64,000 nt of DNA from NCBI GenBank assembly GCA_964248365.1, contig CAXTYC010000019.1, forward strand, positions 1 through 64,000, given 5' to 3'. Made by a program: the position numbers and the translations under genes. The DNA comes from an uncultured Chroococcidiopsis sp. GTDB taxonomy: Bacteria; Cyanobacteriota; Cyanobacteriia; Cyanobacteriales; Chroococcidiopsidaceae. The notes beneath the pieces were generated by a model, which was given only the letters and a program-made list of their open reading frames with translations, was not told the DNA's origin and searched no databases. Positions 50,225-62,278 of this stretch are shown piece after piece; position 1 is the first letter of the stretch, and the number at the start of each line of letters is the position of its first letter.

Positions 50225-50350
50225 TCAGGGAGTAGGGAGTAGGGGGGACAAGGGGACAAGGGGACAAGGGTACAAGGGGAGAATTGTTAATTACGAATTA
50301 CGAATTACGAATTATCATGACTTGTTCTAATCTATCTACTGGCTGCTATA

Positions 50351-50519
50351 AATTTTAAGTTTTATCAAATTTATCAGAAATTCTTATGCTTACCATTGAA
50401 TATCTTAATTTAAGATTTATAAACAATCTTAGGAGTTTTTGTCCTCACGACTGTACGTAAAGCCACTTAAATTTTAAGTTTTATAAAAAATTTCGGGAAT
50501 TTCTGTACTGACGATTGAA
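50351..50519. repeat. Three imperfect ~50-bp direct repeats upstream of the exporter operon
   Basis: Units start AATTT(T)AAG(T/A)TTTAT at 50351, 50407 and 50470 and end in ACCATTGAA, ACGACTGTA and ACGATTGAA respectively. Confidence 0.6.
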
Positions 50520-50842: not shown

Positions 50843-53800
50843 ATGAATCAAAGCTTGGACAGTTATAGTCTGCATCCATCAGGAACATTGCCCAACGCAT
50901 CCCCAAGTAGTGAGGCTATCCTCAGCTTTTTAAGGAGCATTCAAGCAGACAATAGCGGGGCTTTAGCCTTTAGTCAGGCATTTGAGATTCTAGATTTTCA
51001 AATCGGTGATGAGCTTGCTGATTATACTAGTACCGCTATAGCACAAAATTCCGTTCAATCTGAACAAAGTACAAGATACTACTACATAATTTGCACAGGT
51101 AGGGTACGGCTGCTGGGATTCGATTTGCAACAGCAGCGGCAAGTTTCGGCGATCGTGCTGGAGGCTGGGGAGACATTTGGCGCAGAACATTTATTTAGCA
51201 ATCAGCCAGGATTAACCCTAGCGATCGCAGCTAGTACAGGGCAAGTTGCCCGTATCCCCATTGGTGAGTTAAAGCGATGGTTGGAGAGAGTGCCGAATCT
51301 AGGAGAATATTTACTTCAACAAGCCAGAGAGCGGCAATGCCTGGTATTCTTTAAAACTGCTACCCTTTTGCGATCGCTTTCAAGCCATGAACTGCGGCAA
51401 CTGTTACCTTACTTAAACGAAAAACGCATCGAGCGAGGCGAGTCAATAATTGCCGCAACTGAGCCTGGTAGTGGTTGCTTTTGGCTAGCAAGTGGGCAGA
51501 TTCAGAGTCAGTCGAGCGCATTATTACCACCAACTATAGGACAGAGTTGGGGAGAGCCAGCACCCATCGGGACAGATTGGGTTGCCGAAACAGACTTATT
51601 GGCTTACCAACTAAAGAGAGAAAATTGGCTAGATGCTAAAGCGATCGCGCCAATGTTGCCAGATTTATCTGCCCACGAAGGCAATGGAGTTCTAGATAGC
51701 AATGGCAACGGACACAAAAGGAGGTCCGCTACTTCAGCCAGAAATTATTCTCCACCAGTCCAATTAAGAGTCAATCAAAAGCAACAACCCCAACCTGAAC
51801 AAAAGGTTCCTTTCTCCCAGTCTGAACCTGCAAAAATTGATTTTCCTAAACCAGTCATCCAAATCATCAGTAAAGGGATTTGGCAAGCTCTACCCTACAT
51901 TGAGCAGCAAAGTTCATCTGATTGTGGTGCTGCGTGTTTAGCCATGATCAGCAAATACTGGGGAAAAAACTTTACCATCAACACTTTACGCTCTTTGGCT
52001 GATGTAGACAGATCTGGTGCTTCCCTCAAAGGAATAGCCCAAGCGGCCGAAACCTTGGGATTTCACGCCCGTCCAGTCCGAGCAAGCTTGAGTCGCTTGG
52101 AGTCACTGAGCAATCCTTGGGTTGCTCACTGGGAAGGAAATCACTACATCGTTGTCTACCGAGTAGGGGGCGATCGCGTTTTGGTTGCTGATCCAGCTAT
52201 TAGCAAGCGGTGGCTGTCGCGCCAACAGTTCATCGATGGCTGGACTGGTTATGCCCTACTCCTCGACCCTACCTCGCGTTTGCAAGCCACCCCAAACGAG
52301 AAAGTTTCCCTGGGTCAATTCTGGAATGCGGTTTTGCCCTATCGCTCCCTGATCTGGCAAATCGTCGGTATGTCCCTCCTGCTTCAGGTTTTTGGCGTTC
52401 TTACCCCCTTGTTCACCCAGATCATTCTCGATCAGGTAGTGGTGCAAAAAAGCTATGTCACCCTGAATGTATTTGCGATCGGGCTACTATTATTTAGTGT
52501 CTGGCGCATTGGCTTGACAGCAACGCGCCAGTATATGCTTGACTACTTTTCCAATCGCTTTGACCTGACGCTGATCAGTGGCTTTATCAACCATACCTTG
52601 CTGCTGCCGCTGAAGTTTTTTGAATCCCGTCGCGTGGGGGATATTATTACCCGCGTGCAGGAAAACCAAAAGGTACAAGTATTTATCACTCGTCAGGCAA
52701 TATTGTCTTGGTTAGATGCTTTTACGGCAGTTGTTTACATAGGACTAATGTTCTACTACAACTGGCGGCTTGCTTTTCTGGTAATAGGCTTAATTCCCCC
52801 AATTGTCATCTTGACTTTGGTAGCTACTCCTTGGTTGCGACGAGTATCAAGGGAAATTTTTAATGCATCGGCGGCGGAAAACTCCTTGCTGGTAGAAATG
52901 CTAACTGGCGTAGCTACCGTTAAAGCAGTGGCGGCTGAACGAGAAATTCGCTGGCGTTGGGAAGACCGCTTTACCAGCGCTCTAAACGCGCAATTCCGAG
53001 GTCAGAAGCTGGCAAATGGCTTACAAGCAATTGGTGGATTAATTAATACCTTGGGTAGTACAGCCTTGCTATGGTATGGCGCGACGCTGGTGATTCAAAA
53101 CCAGCTAAGTATTGGGCAGTTTGTAGCTTTCAACATGATGATTGGTAATGTCATCAACCCAGTTTTGTCTGTCGTGGGTCTTTGGGATGAGTTGCAAGAA
53201 GTGCTGATCTCGGTTGAAAGGCTCAATGATGTCTTTAGCGCGCAAACCGAAGAAACCCCTGGACAACCAATGCTAGTTTTGCCTCGCCTAGGGGGAGAGG
53301 TGCGATTTGAGAATGTTACGTTTAAATACGATCCAGACTCTGAACGTAACACGCTGCAAAACATTTCTTTTGATGCAACAATCGGGCAAACCGTTGCTAT
53401 TGTTGGGCGCAGCGGTTCTGGTAAGAGTACCTTGGTAAGTTTATTACAAGGACTTTATCACCCTACCAGTGGTCGAATTTTGATCGATGGGCATGATATT
53501 CGGCATATTTCTCCCTCTTCGCTACGTAGTCAATTAGGGGTAGTGCCACAAGAGTGTTTCTTGTTCTCCGGTACTATCCAAGAAAACATTACCTTGTATC
53601 GATCTAATTACACCCTAGAAGAAGTGACAGAGGTTGCCAAATTGGCAGAAGCTAATGCTTTTATTCAAGATATGCCTTTGGGATATAACACACCAGTGGG
53701 GGAACGGGGAACATCGCTGTCTGGGGGACAACGGCAAAGAATTGCGATCGCCCGTGCTTTGTTGGGCGATCCGCGCATTCTCGTGTTGGACGAAGCAACT

Positions 53801-54025
53801 AGTTCCCTTGATACCGAATCCGAACGCCGCTTTCAGCAAAATCTCAATCGGATCAGCCGCGATCGCACTACTTTCATCATTGCTCATCGCCTATCAACGG
53901 TACGTCATGCTGACTGCATTCTAGTCTTAGATCGAGGTATTTTGGCTGAATCCGGCACTCATGAGCAACTGATGGCTCTCGAAGGTATTTACTACCACCT
54001 AGCCCAACAGCAGCTCGATCTCTAA
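50843..54025 (+). CDS. Peptidase-containing ABC transporter (cNMP-like domains + C39 peptidase + TMD + NBD), HetC/HlyB-like
   Basis: C39 QQSSSDCGAAC, HWEGNHY and VADP (catalytic C/H/D present). NBD GRSGSGKST, LSGGQRQR, LDEATS and IAHRLST. Confidence 0.95.
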   Translation: MNQSLDSYSLHPSGTLPNASPSSEAILSFLRSIQADNSGALAFSQAFEILDFQIGDELADYTSTAIAQNSVQSEQSTRYYYIICTGRVRLLGFDLQQQRQVSAIVLEAGETFGAEHLFSNQPGLTLAIAASTGQVARIPIGELKRWLERVPNLGEYLLQQARERQCLVFFKTATLLRSLSSHELRQLLPYLNEKRIERGESIIAATEPGSGCFWLASGQIQSQSSALLPPTIGQSWGEPAPIGTDWVAETDLLAYQLKRENWLDAKAIAPMLPDLSAHEGNGVLDSNGNGHKRRSATSARNYSPPVQLRVNQKQQPQPEQKVPFSQSEPAKIDFPKPVIQIISKGIWQALPYIEQQSSSDCGAACLAMISKYWGKNFTINTLRSLADVDRSGASLKGIAQAAETLGFHARPVRASLSRLESLSNPWVAHWEGNHYIVVYRVGGDRVLVADPAISKRWLSRQQFIDGWTGYALLLDPTSRLQATPNEKVSLGQFWNAVLPYRSLIWQIVGMSLLLQVFGVLTPLFTQIILDQVVVQKSYVTLNVFAIGLLLFSVWRIGLTATRQYMLDYFSNRFDLTLISGFINHTLLLPLKFFESRRVGDIITRVQENQKVQVFITRQAILSWLDAFTAVVYIGLMFYYNWRLAFLVIGLIPPIVILTLVATPWLRRVSREIFNASAAENSLLVEMLTGVATVKAVAAEREIRWRWEDRFTSALNAQFRGQKLANGLQAIGGLINTLGSTALLWYGATLVIQNQLSIGQFVAFNMMIGNVINPVLSVVGLWDELQEVLISVERLNDVFSAQTEETPGQPMLVLPRLGGEVRFENVTFKYDPDSERNTLQNISFDATIGQTVAIVGRSGSGKSTLVSLLQGLYHPTSGRILIDGHDIRHISPSSLRSQLGVVPQECFLFSGTIQENITLYRSNYTLEEVTEVAKLAEANAFIQDMPLGYNTPVGERGTSLSGGQRQRIAIARALLGDPRILVLDEATSSLDTESERRFQQNLNRISRDRTTFIIAHRLSTVRHADCILVLDRGILAESGTHEQLMALEGIYYHLAQQQLDL

Positions 54026-54480: not shown

Positions 54481-56070
54481 ATGCCAAAGCAAACTGTACC
54501 ACTGCCGATCGCTCGCACTAAAGTTGATTCTCACCCAGCTAATCCAAGCTCGAAAAGAGAAATTAACTCACAGCCAGTTACAGAGTTACCAAATAAAGCA
54601 AGTGCTGGCTTGTCATCGGTTAAATCTGAAAGCAATTGGTCGCCCGCTGTACAGAATGTCTTAGAACAGCCGCCCGCATCCTTTCCAAGACAGTTACTCA
54701 TGGGAGGATTGATTTTCTGTCTTGCATTTATTGGTTGGGCTTGGCTGGGGAAAATTGAGGAAGTAGGTCATGCCCAGGGGCGGCTAGTACCGCGAGGAGA
54801 AGCATACAAAGTCAACCCTCTTGATCTGGGCAAGATCATGCGAATCAATGTTAAAGAAGGTGACACAGTTAAAGCTGGACAGGTACTGGTTGAACTGGAT
54901 ACTCAAATAGCCACTAGTGAAGTCGATCGCCTCAAGCAAACGCTTGCTGGGTATCAAGATCAGTTAAAGCAGAAGCAAGCACTAATTGAAAAAAACCGTC
55001 AGGAAGCTAATAGCCGTTCCTTGTTAGCTAAAACTAATCTACAGATACAAGATGCCCTGATCAATGCTGCCAAGTCAAAGGCTGCAACTAGCCAGGAATT
55101 GCTGGCACAAATGCAAACAGAGAAAGCTGCTAGTCAAACGAGAATCCAAAGGCTAAAACCACTTACATCTGTGCGTCAAGAGCGACTAGCACAACTAAAA
55201 TCAGATGTGGCGGCGCATCAGGAAAGAGTTAATCGGCTGAAAAAACTAGTAGCAGATGGGGCGCTTTCTAAGGAATATTTATTTAGAGCGCAGCAAGATC
55301 TAAGCGCTAGTCAAGCAGCAATTACCCAAACTAAATTACAAGAAGGTGCGAACACTGACGATCGCCTGTATGAAGCCGAAAAAAACCAGCGCGATCGTAC
55401 CTCAACTATTACCCAACAACAAGGGGAACTAAAACAAGCCTTGGTAGAAATTCAAAGTCTCCAAGCACAGTTAAACCAAAAAATAGCTGAATCAAATATC
55501 GATCAGCTAGAAGCACAGCAGCGAATACAGCAATTAGAAGTCGAAAAAACTCAGCTAAAATCCCAAATTGCTGAAACGCAAAATCTACTAAACAGAGCGA
55601 GAACGCAATTAGTACAAAAGTTTCTCTATGCTCCAGTTGACGGCGTAGTATCATCGCTCAACGTTCGCAACGTAGGTGAAGTCGTACAGCAAGGACAAAC
55701 AATTGCAGAAGTAGCTCCCACAACCGCACCTCTGGTTCTATCTGCTAGCTTACCTAATTCCGAAGCTGGTTTTATCAAACCAGGTCTGCCAGTGCAAGTT
55801 AAATTAGACGCTTTTCCCTATCAGGATTTCGGTATCGTTAGTGGCAAAGTCACTTCTATCTCTCCTGATACTAAACAAGATGAGAAGCAAGGTCTAGTCT
55901 ATAAAGTTGAAGTAGCGCTTGATCGTAATTATGTCAATACTAATGGGCAAACCATCCAATTTAAGGCTGGTCAAACTGCTACGGCAGACATTATTATCCG
56001 TCACCGTAGCATTGCTGATGTATTGCTCGATCCACTCAAGCAGCTGCAAAAAGGCGGTATGAATTTATAA
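54481..56070 (+). CDS. HlyD-family type I secretion membrane fusion protein
   Basis: TM helix, VKEGDTVKAGQVL, long coiled coil, APVDGVV and KLDAFPYQDFG. Confidence 0.94.
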   Translation: MPKQTVPLPIARTKVDSHPANPSSKREINSQPVTELPNKASAGLSSVKSESNWSPAVQNVLEQPPASFPRQLLMGGLIFCLAFIGWAWLGKIEEVGHAQGRLVPRGEAYKVNPLDLGKIMRINVKEGDTVKAGQVLVELDTQIATSEVDRLKQTLAGYQDQLKQKQALIEKNRQEANSRSLLAKTNLQIQDALINAAKSKAATSQELLAQMQTEKAASQTRIQRLKPLTSVRQERLAQLKSDVAAHQERVNRLKKLVADGALSKEYLFRAQQDLSASQAAITQTKLQEGANTDDRLYEAEKNQRDRTSTITQQQGELKQALVEIQSLQAQLNQKIAESNIDQLEAQQRIQQLEVEKTQLKSQIAETQNLLNRARTQLVQKFLYAPVDGVVSSLNVRNVGEVVQQGQTIAEVAPTTAPLVLSASLPNSEAGFIKPGLPVQVKLDAFPYQDFGIVSGKVTSISPDTKQDEKQGLVYKVEVALDRNYVNTNGQTIQFKAGQTATADIIIRHRSIADVLLDPLKQLQKGGMNL

Positions 56071-56144: not shown

Positions 56145-56549
56145 ATGACTGGGCGAATTCCTTTTTCAGATACCAGAGTTAACAAAACTATTCACGACGA
56201 GCAACTAAATCAGATCATTGAAGCAATTTTGGCTGGAAAGTATTCCTGGGCTTGTTTTTTACTCCTACGCTGTACTGGTTACGATCCATTACATTACATA
56301 CCCTATCGCACATACAACCGATTGTTGAAAGAAAACTGCCAACATGGCAAATCAAGGATACAAACAACCGATAAGATCAAACTTGATAACCAACGTGAAG
56401 TTAATAATAGTAGATCTTCACAAGGATGTTTAAGCAAGATTAAAGACCTGGGTTACTTAGAGGTTGTTGGTAAGCAAAAAGCACAGGTGCGCGGTGGTAT
56501 TCTAAGTCAGTATCCGCTGTTTAACAAAGTCTTCACAGCACTCAAGTAA
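56145..56549 (+). CDS. hetP: HetP-family protein
   Basis: [46 protein letters not shown]. Family-level call; alternative GTG start at 56136. Confidence 0.85.
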
Positions 56550-56730: not shown

Positions 56731-56743
56731 TGCCAAAATGGCA
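56731..56743. promoter_or_regulatory. Palindrome TGCCA-AAA-TGGCA upstream of precursor 1
   Basis: Identical 13-mer at 58964-58976 upstream of precursor 6; TATAGT lies 22 nt downstream here. Confidence 0.55.
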
Positions 56744-56841
56744 ACATACCTCTAAAGCAGTTAGTTATAGTTTAAACATAGCAACTAACAAATGTTGTTT
56801 CAGGCAAACAAATTCTTTCTAGTTATTGTAGGAGACAAACA

Positions 56842-57060
56842 ATGATTATTTCTGATTTGAATCATCTAGAAGTTGTATCGGAAGCATCCAGCGTTGTCGG
56901 TGGCGGAAACAATTCTCTCGATTTCTACCTAAAAATTACCAAACAGGCTAATGTTTCCGTAATCAAACAGGAAGCTAATGCTGCTGCTGTCACTTTTAAG
57001 GGAAATGCAACAGCTACAGCAACCAATAAAGCAACAGTAGTGCAGCTTAACCAAGCTTAA
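56842..57060 (+). CDS. Double-glycine-leader secreted peptide 1 (curlin-like core)
   Basis: Leader MIISDLNHLEVVSEASSVVGG; RBS AGGAG. Confidence 0.88.
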   Translation: MIISDLNHLEVVSEASSVVGGGNNSLDFYLKITKQANVSVIKQEANAAAVTFKGNATATATNKATVVQLNQA

Positions 57061-57204
57061 CGATTGCTGTAAGTATCATCTAGATATGTTTAGCAATAAT
57101 ATTGCTGCCTGGGCAACATTATTGCCAGGAGCAATTAAGGTGTTGCTCACAACAACCAAGACAAATTGCCGTAAACACACAAACTATTTTGTAGGAGACA
57201 AACA

Positions 57205-57423
57205 ATGATTATTTCTGATTTGAATCATCTAGAAGTTGTGTCGGAAGCATCCAGCGTTGTCGGTGGCGGAAACAATTCTCTCGATTTCTACCTAAAATTT
57301 ACCAAACAGTCTAATGTCTCCGTAATTACCCAGGTAGCCAATGCCGCTGCTATCTCCACTAAGGGAAATGCAAAAGCTACAGCAACCAATACAGCAACAG
57401 TAGTGCAGCTTAACCAAGCTTAA
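57205..57423 (+). CDS. Double-glycine-leader secreted peptide 2
   Basis: Same leader; core is a variant of peptide 1. Confidence 0.88.
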   Translation: MIISDLNHLEVVSEASSVVGGGNNSLDFYLKFTKQSNVSVITQVANAAAISTKGNAKATATNTATVVQLNQA

Positions 57424-57567
57424 CGATTGCTGTGAGCAGCATCTAGATATGTTTAGCAATAATATTGCTGCCAGTCTAGCAAGATTATTGCCGGAGCAAT
57501 TAAGGTGTTGCTCATAACAACCAAGACAAATTGCGGTAAACACAAACTATTTTGTAGGAACAAGACA

Positions 57568-57804
57568 ATGATTATTTCTGATTTGAATCATCTAGAAGTT
57601 GTGTCGGAAGCATCCAGCGTTGTCGGCGGCGGCGGAAACAAAAATAACAAATACAAACCTGTCAAAATCGACCTAAAAATTACCGATCAGTCTAATGTCT
57701 CCGTAATCTATCAGGAAGCTAATGCTGCTGCTGTCACTTCTAAGGGAAATGCAACAGCTACAGCAACCAATACAGCAACAGTAGTGCAGGTTAACAAAGC
57801 TTAA
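57568..57804 (+). CDS. Double-glycine-leader secreted peptide 3
   Basis: ATG at 57568 by alignment with the other copies; Lys/Asn-rich insert after GG. Confidence 0.88.
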   Translation: MIISDLNHLEVVSEASSVVGGGGNKNNKYKPVKIDLKITDQSNVSVIYQEANAAAVTSKGNATATATNTATVVQVNKA

Positions 57805-57948
57805 CGATTGCTGTAAGCAGCATCTAGATATGTTTAGCAATAATATTGCTGCCAGTCTAGCAAGATTATTGCCGGAGCAATTAAGGTGTTGCTCATAACA
57901 ACCAAGACAAATTGCGGTAAACACAAACTATTTTGTAGGAACAAGACA

Positions 57949-58185
57949 ATGATTATTTCTGATTTGAATCATCTAGAAGTTGTGTCGGAAGCATCCAGCG
58001 TTGTCGGCGGCGGCGGAAACAAAAATAACAAATACAAACCTGTCAAAATCGACCTAAAAATTACCGATCAGTCTAATGTCTCCGTAATCTATCAGGAAGC
58101 TAATGCTGCTGCTGTCACTTCTAAGGGAAATGCAACAGCTACAGCAACCAATACAGCAACAGTAGTGCAGGTTAACCGAGCTTAA
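57949..58185 (+). CDS. Double-glycine-leader secreted peptide 4
   Basis: Identical to peptide 3 except K>R at the penultimate residue. Confidence 0.88.
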   Translation: MIISDLNHLEVVSEASSVVGGGGNKNNKYKPVKIDLKITDQSNVSVIYQEANAAAVTSKGNATATATNTATVVQVNRA

Positions 58186-58332
58186 CGATTGCTGTGAGCA
58201 ACATCTAGATATGTTTAGCAATAATATTGCTGCCTGGGCAGCAATATTATTGTCAAACTTAGTAATTTGATTGCTCACAACAACCAAGAGAAATTGCAGC
58301 AAACAAGCAATCTATTTTGTAGGAAGAAAACA

Positions 58333-58560
58333 ATGGTTATTTCTGATTTGAATCATCTAGAAGTTGTGTCGAAAGCGTCTAGCGTTGTCGGCGGAAAAGT
58401 AGGTATCGACCTAGATTTAAAGCAGAAGCAGAATCAAAAGCTGAGTATCAAAGGAGCCAATATTGGCATTATCAATCAAGTTGGTATTGCTACTGCTGTA
58501 GCTGTAAACTTGAATGGTAAAGCAGTTGCAAAAGCAGATGTTGAAAATAACATTAACTAA
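58333..58560 (+). CDS. Double-glycine-leader secreted peptide 5 (divergent core)
   Basis: Leader MVISDLNHLEVVSKASSVVGG; N/Q/I/V/A-rich core. Confidence 0.85.
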   Translation: MVISDLNHLEVVSKASSVVGGKVGIDLDLKQKQNQKLSIKGANIGIINQVGIATAVAVNLNGKAVAKADVENNIN

Positions 58561-59060: not shown

Positions 59061-59294
59061 ATGATTATCATTTCAGACTTGAGCTATGTAGAAGTAGTTT
59101 CTGCATCTAGTATTGTAGGTGGAGCCAGCCAAGTTAATTCGGCAGAGTTTAGCACCACCACTAACACTAATGACTCGTCGGTTACAACAGGAGGAGCTTT
59201 TAATCTAAGTCCGTCTCACTCCACGCCCACACCCCTAGCAAACAGCACGATTTTACCTAATAACATCAAGCTCGAACAAGCGTTAGCTTTATGA
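59061..59294 (+). CDS. Double-glycine-leader peptide 6 (Ser/Thr/Asn-rich core)
   Basis: Leader MIIISDLSYVEVVSASSIVGG; RBS GGAGA. Confidence 0.78.
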   Translation: MIIISDLSYVEVVSASSIVGGASQVNSAEFSTTTNTNDSSVTTGGAFNLSPSHSTPTPLANSTILPNNIKLEQALAL

Positions 59295-61103: not shown

Positions 61104-61289
61104 ATGAACTACTCTAAAGTCTTTGTCAAACGCACATCACAAGATGGAGAGGTTGTTACACAAGCAAAAAGTGTGGTAGTTACTTCTGGTAACTCACAAT
61201 GCACAGTGAGTCAAACCGTTACTGTTGAATCCTCGGAAAATAGTTATAGCAGTAGCTCAACATCTAGCTCTACTACTGTAAGTATATAG
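61104..61289 (+). CDS. Small Ser/Thr/Val-rich hypothetical protein (61 aa)
   Basis: RBS AAGGGAG; VSQTVTVESS and a poly-Ser tail; no GG leader. Confidence 0.65.
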   Translation: MNYSKVFVKRTSQDGEVVTQAKSVVVTSGNSQCTVSQTVTVESSENSYSSSSTSSSTTVSI

Positions 61290-61435: not shown

Positions 61436-62278
61436 TCACCTTGAGCTAAAACCTTTTCTTTTCATTTTATACCCCATACCCATTACCCATAAGAGTGAAC
61501 CTAAGATAGTTGAAGGTTCAGGAACACTAGCGCTTTCCTGTGCATTAACTTCGGCATAATTTGTCTTAACTTCTACTAAAGTTAGATTGGTTAAGACATC
61601 AAAAGTACGTGAAAAAATCCCCCCTGTTGATGCTTGAGCAATTTCTTGCTGATTTCCAAAACTAGTTTCTAAAGTAGTTTTCCTTAGATTCAAGGTGAAG
61701 CCGTTACTAGTTTTGTAATTAAGATAATCATTGTTACCCATAGTGGCTAAATTACCCTTGAGGGTAAAGGAATCCAAGTAAATCCAATTATCCTGATTAG
61801 AGGTTTCATACAACTTTAAAGAGATATCACCAGTAGCATTTGCAGCTTCAAATTTGGGGTTGTCTATTGATGTAGCTAGGTTTAAGCCAGCGTTGAAGTT
61901 GAAAGAGAAAGTTTCACCACTATTTACACGAAAGTTATAGCCTACAACGGCGGCTTTACTTTGTGCTAAACCAGAGTATTCGCTACCATTTCCATTAGTT
62001 CTACTAAAGGATGAATTGTCAGCATAAAATGGAGTGTCTACGACGATTAAATCATTTACTGCTGAAGCCGTAACCGTTCCATTACTAGCAAATGTGTCAG
62101 CATAAGTCTCAGCCAGAATCAAAACATCTGAAGGATCGTGACTAAAGTTACCAATTTGTACTATTGACTGGGAATTACCTAAAGTAGCAGCTAGAAGGGG
62201 TGAAGTAGTTAAACCTAAAGCAAGCGGTGCTATAGGAGTAATTAGTAATAAAAAACTCTTAGCATTGATATTTTGCAC
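61436..62278 (-). CDS. PEP-CTERM sorting-domain surface protein
   Basis: Signal peptide; C-terminal VPEPSTILG, then a TM segment and KMKRK. Confidence 0.9.
   Translation of the reverse strand: MQNINAKSFLLLITPIAPLALGLTTSPLLAATLGNSQSIVQIGNFSHDPSDVLILAETYADTFASNGTVTASAVNDLIVVDTPFYADNSSFSRTNGNGSEYSGLAQSKAAVVGYNFRVNSGETFSFNFNAGLNLATSIDNPKFEAANATGDISLKLYETSNQDNWIYLDSFTLKGNLATMGNNDYLNYKTSNGFTLNLRKTTLETSFGNQQEIAQASTGGIFSRTFDVLTNLTLVEVKTNYAEVNAQESASVPEPSTILGSLLWVMGMGYKMKRKGFSSR

Follow-up and report, generated by a model that had tools for sequence, protein, structure and literature searches.

A double-glycine leader motif near the C terminus of HetP as a candidate target of the HetC-type exporter peptidase

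The window analysed here is a stretch of 64,000 nucleotides from an uncultured Chroococcidiopsis sp. (contig CAXTYC010000019.1, positions 1 to 64,000). It contains a HetP-family gene that follows the genes of a peptidase-containing exporter and precedes an array of small peptide genes:

50843 to 54025, plus strand: HetC-type long peptidase-containing ABC exporter, 1060 aa (PF00027, PF03412, PF00664, PF00005)
54481 to 56070, plus strand: HlyD-family membrane fusion protein, 529 aa (TIGR01843 above cut-off)
56145 to 56549, plus strand: HetP-family protein, 134 aa (NF037966), modeled by AlphaFold as a folded three-helix core, a disordered linker, a leader-like motif and a 16-aa tail
56196 to 56348, plus strand: HetP core domain, three helices (mean pLDDT 89 when the core is folded alone)
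56436 to 56498, plus strand: internal double-glycine leader motif KIxDLxYLE-x10-GG, a predicted C39 recognition and cleavage site (motif published in PMC3140520)
56499 to 56549, plus strand: C-terminal tail of 16 aa (56499-56546), a low-confidence predicted amphipathic helix, and stop codon (56547-56549)
56731 to 56771, plus strand: candidate activated promoter of the peptide array, with the palindrome TGCCA-N3-TGGCA (56731-56743), 22 nt, and TATAGT (56766-56771)
56842 to 57060, plus strand: leader peptide gene 1, 72 aa
57205 to 57423, plus strand: leader peptide gene 2, 72 aa
57568 to 57804, plus strand: leader peptide gene 3, 78 aa
57949 to 58185, plus strand: leader peptide gene 4, 78 aa, near-identical to gene 3 at a spacing of 381 bp
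58333 to 58560, plus strand: leader peptide gene 5, 75 aa
58964 to 58976, plus strand: second copy of the palindrome, 97 nt before leader peptide gene 6
59061 to 59294, plus strand: leader peptide gene 6, 77 aa
59748 to 60011, plus strand: leader peptide gene 7, 87 aa
60273 to 61013, plus strand: SurA/PpiC-type rotamase, 246 aa (PF00639 and PF13145 above cut-off)

The exporter is composed of cNMP-binding, C39 peptidase, ABC membrane and ATPase domains, and its catalytic triad is intact (Q355/C361/H434/D450). In a FastTree phylogeny of 75 exporter rows it groups with the exporters found upstream of hetP in heterocyst-formers (99% SH-like support) and apart from a second long paralogue. The HetC-side clade comprises 35 rows (support 99) and includes, besides the window protein, the 1044-aa exporter of locus L074, where HetP differs by eye from published alr2818 at one position. 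Judged by this tree, the window exporter is orthologous to HetC and not to the second long paralogue. The HetP reading frame starts at an ATG at 56145 and scores 111.6 bits against the NF037966 HetP_family model (cut-off 45), identifying the protein as a family member; hetP is present in a single copy in the source genome, and HetP matches were found in 85 of 401 sampled genomes. Neither a HetR match nor an above-cut-off nifH was found in the source genome (the HetR control was positive in four of five genomes), which indicates a non-heterocyst context. The long C39 exporter, HlyD and SurA that characterize the group II bacteriocin clusters of Wang et al. are all present in the window cluster. 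The gene patC (asr2819) was not located in any locus.

Several further features flank the cluster. A 359-aa open reading frame at 47857-48936 matches nothing in Pfam or NCBIfam, three imperfect 52-nt direct repeats lie upstream of the exporter gene (50349-50519), and a 61-aa Ser/Val-rich open reading frame after SurA (61104-61289) has relatives at the same place in loci L005, L084 and L172 (39-41% identity). A PEP-CTERM protein is encoded beside the cluster on the minus strand (61436-62278; TIGR04155 above cut-off).

The initial annotation had noted that the C-terminal segment of HetP resembles the leaders of the neighboring peptide genes and is followed by a 16-residue tail, and this is confirmed from the sequence at 56436-56546. 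The segment spans 21 residues (98-118 of 134) and matches exactly, near the C terminus, the pattern KIxDLxYLEx10GG reported in HetP proteins including alr2818 by Wang, Fewer and Sivonen in 2011 (PMC3140520) and repeated, in the accessible text, by Micallef et al. in 2015 (PMC4558948). All seven open reading frames 3' of hetP begin M(I/V)(I)ISDLx(H/Y)(L/V)E...GG. What the segment and the leaders share is the motif; they are not colinear, since the spacer lengths differ (10 residues in HetP, mostly 9 in the leaders). A loose regular expression for the motif finds only 11 matches in the six frames of the genome (11.16 M residues), of which eight are HetP and the seven cargo open reading frames, so that the sharing of the motif within one cluster exceeds chance. 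Among the closest HetP homologues the IxDL-type box is present in 120 of 120 and is followed by GG or GA in 118 of 120. AlphaFold predicts the three-helix HetP core with confidence and the motif region as disordered, as one would expect if the site took on its fold in contact with a partner.

A profile HMM built from the HetP C-terminal motifs only was searched at E<=10 against 44,192 frames (2.68 M aa) from 183 loci and part of the window. It returned 94 non-HetP domain rows, 88 of which are N-terminal leaders located 1-6 residues from the Met of small open reading frames; of the remaining six, one is a truncated HetP, one is a likely leader that has no Met, and four are stray rows. Although no hydrophobic residue was demanded at position -4, it is I, L or V in 79 of 82 distinct leaders and in 37 of 39 distinct HetP motifs. 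The classical double-glycine leader, M(R/K)ELX3E(I/L)X2(I/V)XG(G/A) as quoted in PMC3140520, agrees with both sets in its GG/GA and hydrophobic -4 position. Its -7 Leu/Ile (2 of 82 leaders, 1 of 39 HetP motifs) and its -12 Leu (13 of 82 and 0 of 39) are scarce or absent, and HetP and cargo thus constitute a distinct leader subtype. The seven cargo genes have short N-terminal leaders of the usual kind and HetP, with its motif at residues 98-118, does not. The two sets also differ in the spacer from the Glu to the GG, which is 10 residues long in 132 of 137 HetP proteins and ranges from 7 to 11 in the leaders, most often 9 (10 in just 3 of 109). It is fixed and basic in HetP (K+R 0.30) and variable and acidic in the cargo, and Arg occupies position -3 in 64% of HetP motifs where the cargo has Val or Glu. 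Co-variation of the HetP box with the leaders of its own cluster, which had been put forward as a test, did not reach significance (p=0.13 over 44 loci, with the four second-cluster loci L007, L038, L048 and L120 omitted), and the one column with p=0.004 apparently owes its signal to a single genus. On sequence grounds, the C-terminal segment of HetP is a genuine cargo-type leader that is under selection.

No NCBIfam family was above cut-off for the 19 cargo peptides checked. Genes 1 to 5 (56842-58560) form a tandem array with a spacing of 363-384 bp, and the cargo cores are Cys-free, rich in Ala, Thr, Val and Asn and of beta-forming appearance, closer to matrix proteins than to bacteriocins. 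The second, paralogous long exporter of heterocyst-formers is accompanied by cargo with the same leader type (L007:20065-20358, L038:18430-18774, L120), without the palindrome within 300 bp, and a short HetP paralogue that has no motif faces this second exporter in L073, L115 and L116.

The surroundings of the exporter differ between lineages. At loci with an intact exporter outside the heterocyst-formers, a full HlyD is present in 39 of 39 and leaders lie within 5 kb in 30 of 39; in heterocyst-formers, HlyD is absent or partial in 55 of 55 and leaders lie within 5 kb in 1 of 55, both sets of counts including some short loci. This distribution supports the descent of hetC-hetP from an export module.

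If HetP is a target of the exporter peptidase, its motif would be expected to depend on hetC, and the pattern of conservation across homologues is consistent with this. The comparison drew on 170 distinct HetP rows, 37 of which were dropped as coming from loci too short to call the exporter. In a first sample of 91 proteins (89 with the heterocyst-former-type motif, the window protein and that of L001), the motif is canonical in 56 of the 57 proteins whose neighboring exporter is intact and catalytic; of the 34 whose exporter is absent, broken or Cys>Ser, 14 have a canonical motif. A second, partly overlapping sample comprised all 46 genomes of one family (f5), taken as heterocyst-formers from their HetP type and with hetC called genome-wide; here, 8 of the 9 genomes with intact hetC retain GG or GA, against 8 of the 37 that have no intact hetC. 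An intact catalytic hetC adjoins the main hetP in only 9 of these 46 genomes, most having none and one clade carrying the Cys>Ser change. On a merged tree of 122 HetP rows, built from core and linker with the motif columns excluded, the eight leader-defining positions changed 59 times on hetC-less branches (4.29 substitutions per site) and 5 times on hetC-bearing branches (5.85 substitutions per site), parsimony counts that are inflated by weakly resolved nodes. The GG is the most decayed part, with 31 of the 59 hetC-less changes. The HetP core changed 79 times without hetC and 112 times with it, which fits the branch-length share of 0.42 and indicates an unchanged rate.

Motif decay is seen in 6 of 10 separate hetC-less clades. 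The motif is kept in the other four, and three of these exceptions (L009, L072, L021) still hold hetC remnants. Within the Cys>Ser exporter clade the canonical motif is lost in 4 of 6, which points to catalysis rather than docking alone. In genome G161 the GG is kept in the HetP that lies beside the intact exporter and not in the other HetP copy. The full-length long exporters taken from 10 hetC-less genomes all fall in the paralogous clade. One genome, G237, was suspected of carrying hetC elsewhere (a rerun with it recoded gave 22:4), a suspicion rejected once the tree had placed both its exporters as paralogues. The absences of hetC reported in accessible parts of the literature for Cylindrospermopsis raciborskii and Nodularia spumigena (PMC2821919, PMC3610870) fit repeated loss. 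Tests on independent pairs (6 and 4 supported pairs) were of low power and not significant (median p 0.5), with almost no pairings in the opposite direction. The association also has exceptions: an intact exporter lies beside a motif-less HetP in L085, L086, L106 and L245, genome G279 has Gly-Arg in place of GG despite an intact exporter, and outside the heterocyst-formers GG or GA is kept in only 33 of 39. The Tyr and Glu of the box and the Val that follows never change, even without hetC, indicating that the motif segment has a second role. The initial annotation had linked the HetP motif to the C39 domain, and the decay of the motif where hetC is lost or Cys>Ser lends this link support. It likewise makes HetP a likely substrate of HetC.

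This result bears on what has been published on the two proteins. The HetC peptidase is active and essential, and its substrate is described as unknown, with no leader gene near hetC, in the accessible text of Rachedi 2024 (PMC10986499), which leaves the export of HetP-derived peptides as a question. Corrales-Guerrero 2014 (PMC4133259) reports, in the portion available, that 3-4-fold overexpression of hetP rescues a deletion of the hetC peptidase, which places HetP downstream of HetC. According to the same source, a C-terminal HetP-GFP fusion is functional and fluorescent in the cytoplasm and at the poles, with the same localization when HetC has no peptidase domain; at least part of HetP therefore stays uncut and unexported. 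We found no title or abstract reporting cleavage of HetP in the literature searched, outside which most subscription papers lie. From the sequence comparisons, HetP is likely to be the long-sought protein cut by HetC.

A second line of evidence comes from the DNA of the peptide array. A repeat search found the palindrome TGCCA-N3-TGGCA twice in the array; strict copies number only six in the whole genome, four of them in this cluster. In 45 of 55 loci the palindrome stands in front of leader genes, the background rate being 0.03 per 300 bp, and in 151 of 178 spacings found it lies 21-22 nt before a TAnAnT box. This spacing is that of an activator site such as NtcA's. In L268 the palindrome marks a distant pair of leader genes. 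Palindrome and -10 box occur together in 32 of 40 hetP-positive genomes and in 1 of 20 hetP-negative genomes (2 of 60 for a reversed-pattern control), the strict form being absent from eight of the 40. They are present in all seven tested genomes that keep hetP without an intact hetC gene, and the palindrome persists where HetP has no C-terminal motif (L085, L086, L106), so that the element tracks the HetP core better than the exporter. No relevant report on the TGCCA-N3-TGGCA element was found in the literature searched.

In 78 of 91 heterocyst-former loci a palindrome promoter lies 130-1200 bp downstream of hetP; L025 and L074, which are closest to PCC 7120, are without such a site. The promoter is followed by a ribosome-binding site, a relic of a leader start and a relic of the GG codons (57 of 78) in broken frames (for example L013:4349-4768 and L057:7510-7929). 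The relic is a fossil cargo gene that has been conserved as DNA and may now give a non-coding RNA. A profile of the relic has as its sole match in the source genome the start of cargo gene 2, a weak hit (E 3.8). Behind the same promoter, heterocyst-formers also have a structured RNA of about 330 nt with a terminator (L249:531-900, L263:439-805 and, in three tandem copies, L267), in which 15 of 41 pairs have compensatory changes, a level that none of 500 shuffles attained. Neither the relic nor the structured RNA matched anything in Rfam. The PMC4734099 supplements contain none of four probe strings; sRNAs of 340-344 nt are listed there, and the structured RNA may be one of them. The proposal of the initial annotation that hetC-hetP derives from a peptide-export module is thus supported by the orthologous exporter, by an HlyD that is lost or partial in 55 of 55 heterocyst-former loci and by a frame-broken cargo gene behind the same promoter.

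We think it reasonably probable, from the leader subtype and its decay, that HetC-type peptidases bind the HetP motif and cut it after the Gly-Gly, so controlling the HetP core. The C39 peptidase of the adjacent HetC-type exporter would bind the leader copy in HetP, and the cut would free the folded core from a short disposable tail. The released core may be the active form. Videau et al. in 2016 reportedly found an N-terminal part of HetP to be enough for function, a result on which the present reading does not draw. With less support, the core could be the activator that acts at TGCCA-N3-TGGCA before the cargo genes, in which case these genes would be on only while the exporter works. No other small soluble protein of the module is a candidate regulator, and we hold it possible, if doubtful, that the HetP core activates the palindrome promoters; the palindrome could just as well be the binding site of a general transcription factor. 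Searches of the HetP core against Pfam and PDB sequences gave nothing above noise, a Foldseek search gave no match at E<=0.001, and a protein atlas search with HetP returned HetP clusters only. Its resemblance to helix-turn-helix folds is weak and within the noise (best VIA Z 4.7-4.8, where Z <5 is noise), the matches being RPC62 (Z 4.7, rmsd 2.8, 54 aligned) and Spo0J (Z 4.8, rmsd 4.7, 57 aligned). The heterocyst-forming lineages would have lost HlyD and the cargo peptides and retained HetC and HetP as a proteolytic switch. More speculative still is the full scheme, in which HetP would be an activator for TGCCA-N3-TGGCA promoters that is released by the C39 domain of its own exporter, giving an export-coupled feedback switch. 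Heterocyst-formers would have co-opted it so that the HetC cut of HetP became the commitment step, with secreted peptides giving way in the regulon to non-coding RNAs, among them the cargo relic and the structured RNA.

Other readings of the motif have to be weighed against cleavage by HetC. HetP might dock on the C39 domain through its motif and be cut slowly or never; it would then serve as a gate or pseudo-substrate, or be kept at the membrane until cargo takes its place. The systematic differences between HetP and cargo in their spacers and at position -3 would suit such a role, as would the HetP-GFP fusion that stays fluorescent inside the cell and is reported to be partly membrane-associated (PMC4133259, accessible text). 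It is nonetheless the GG that decays most, also where the exporter is Cys>Ser, and heterocyst-formers have almost no cargo to gate (leaders near the exporter in one of 55 loci); we regard docking without efficient cleavage as unlikely. Decay of the motif after loss of the catalytic Cys alone, as read from these sequences, favours cleavage over a decoy or gate. A less likely account sees in the motif what is left of an old fusion to a cargo gene, now retained for a different partner or processed by a different protease such as M16, with the link to hetC reflecting shared history. It draws on the persistence of the YxEV part without hetC, on the small number of independent contrasts and on the suggestion of an M16 peptidase in Wang 2011 (PMC3140520, accessible text). 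An M16-like HxxEH open reading frame does lie about 10 kb from hetP, on the same contig and just outside the window. The disparity in key-position changes between hetC-bearing and hetC-less branches speaks against shared history as the explanation. No M16 peptidase is found among the open reading frames at 46-64 kb of the window, and of 72 loci that have an intact exporter and measure 15 kb or more, only 1 has an M16-like one nearby, as recognized by the simple HxxEH pattern; M16 was accordingly set aside as the likely protease.

Most improbable to us is that HetP is a long-leader precursor, as in the reading of Wang et al. (PMC3140520), whose accessible text terms HetP proteins possible precursors, with the exported tail as the product, a bacteriocin or a short signal. 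Its layout of a conserved N-terminal domain, a GG and a hypervariable end is that of the NHLP/N11P precursors (PMC2887384), and the tails are conserved within lineages and contain Trp in 72 of 87. Across homologues, however, the tails range from 6 to 55 aa without shared sequence and are unlike the Ser/Ala/Thr/Gly-rich cargo in composition. The core is kept in short paralogues that have no motif and evolves at the same rate without hetC, and full HlyD is absent from all 55 heterocyst-former loci. A conserved short signalling peptide, as the tail had at first been suggested to be, is not borne out; with neither length nor sequence conserved, such a role is unlikely.

Comparison with known systems places the cluster more precisely. 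The HetC and HetP of Anabaena/Nostoc PCC 7120, as far as the accessible texts describe them (PMC10986499, PMC4133259), have an orthologous exporter with cNMP and active C39 domains and the same HetP family and motif, and hetP adjoins the exporter genes there as in the window. The source genome differs in having no HetR match or nifH above cut-off and in keeping the full HlyD and seven intact cargo genes, and on these grounds shows the ancestral, non-heterocyst setting. The group I/II bacteriocin clusters (PMC3140520, PMC4558948, accessible parts) likewise combine a long-type C39 exporter, HlyD, SurA and small precursors beside HetP. In the accessible text of PMC3140520, the motif is ascribed to M16 and not equated with the neighboring peptide leaders, and no link to hetC loss, promoter element or relic gene is described. 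HetP resembles the NHLP/N11P long-leader precursors (Haft 2010, PMC2887384) in its folded N-terminal domain, a GG far from the N terminus and a hypervariable C terminus. It differs from them in having no ELSDEEL-type motif before the GG, no hydrophobic -7 residue, a single copy and an N-terminal domain that is a known regulator, and the window cluster has no modifying enzyme among its open reading frames at 46-64 kb. The EbfG1-4 proteins of Synechococcus elongatus, small GG-leader proteins cut and secreted by the C39 exporter PteB (PMC4997328, PMC9981879), are a precedent for a matrix role of the cargo; HetP is not mentioned in these papers (0 occurrences).

The HetP motif and the cluster type are already known; what appears to be new is the correlated loss of motif and hetC, the leader subtype common to HetP and cargo, the promoter element and the relic. 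The present analysis addresses two questions of heterocyst development, which substrate HetC has and how HetP acts at the molecular level. It names HetP as a candidate HetC substrate with an exact predicted cut site, backed by the repeated loss of that site on loss of hetC, and offers TGCCA-N3-TGGCA as a candidate DNA target. The question of the HetC substrate thereby becomes directly testable, and the locus indicates how a developmental checkpoint may have arisen from a peptide secretion module.
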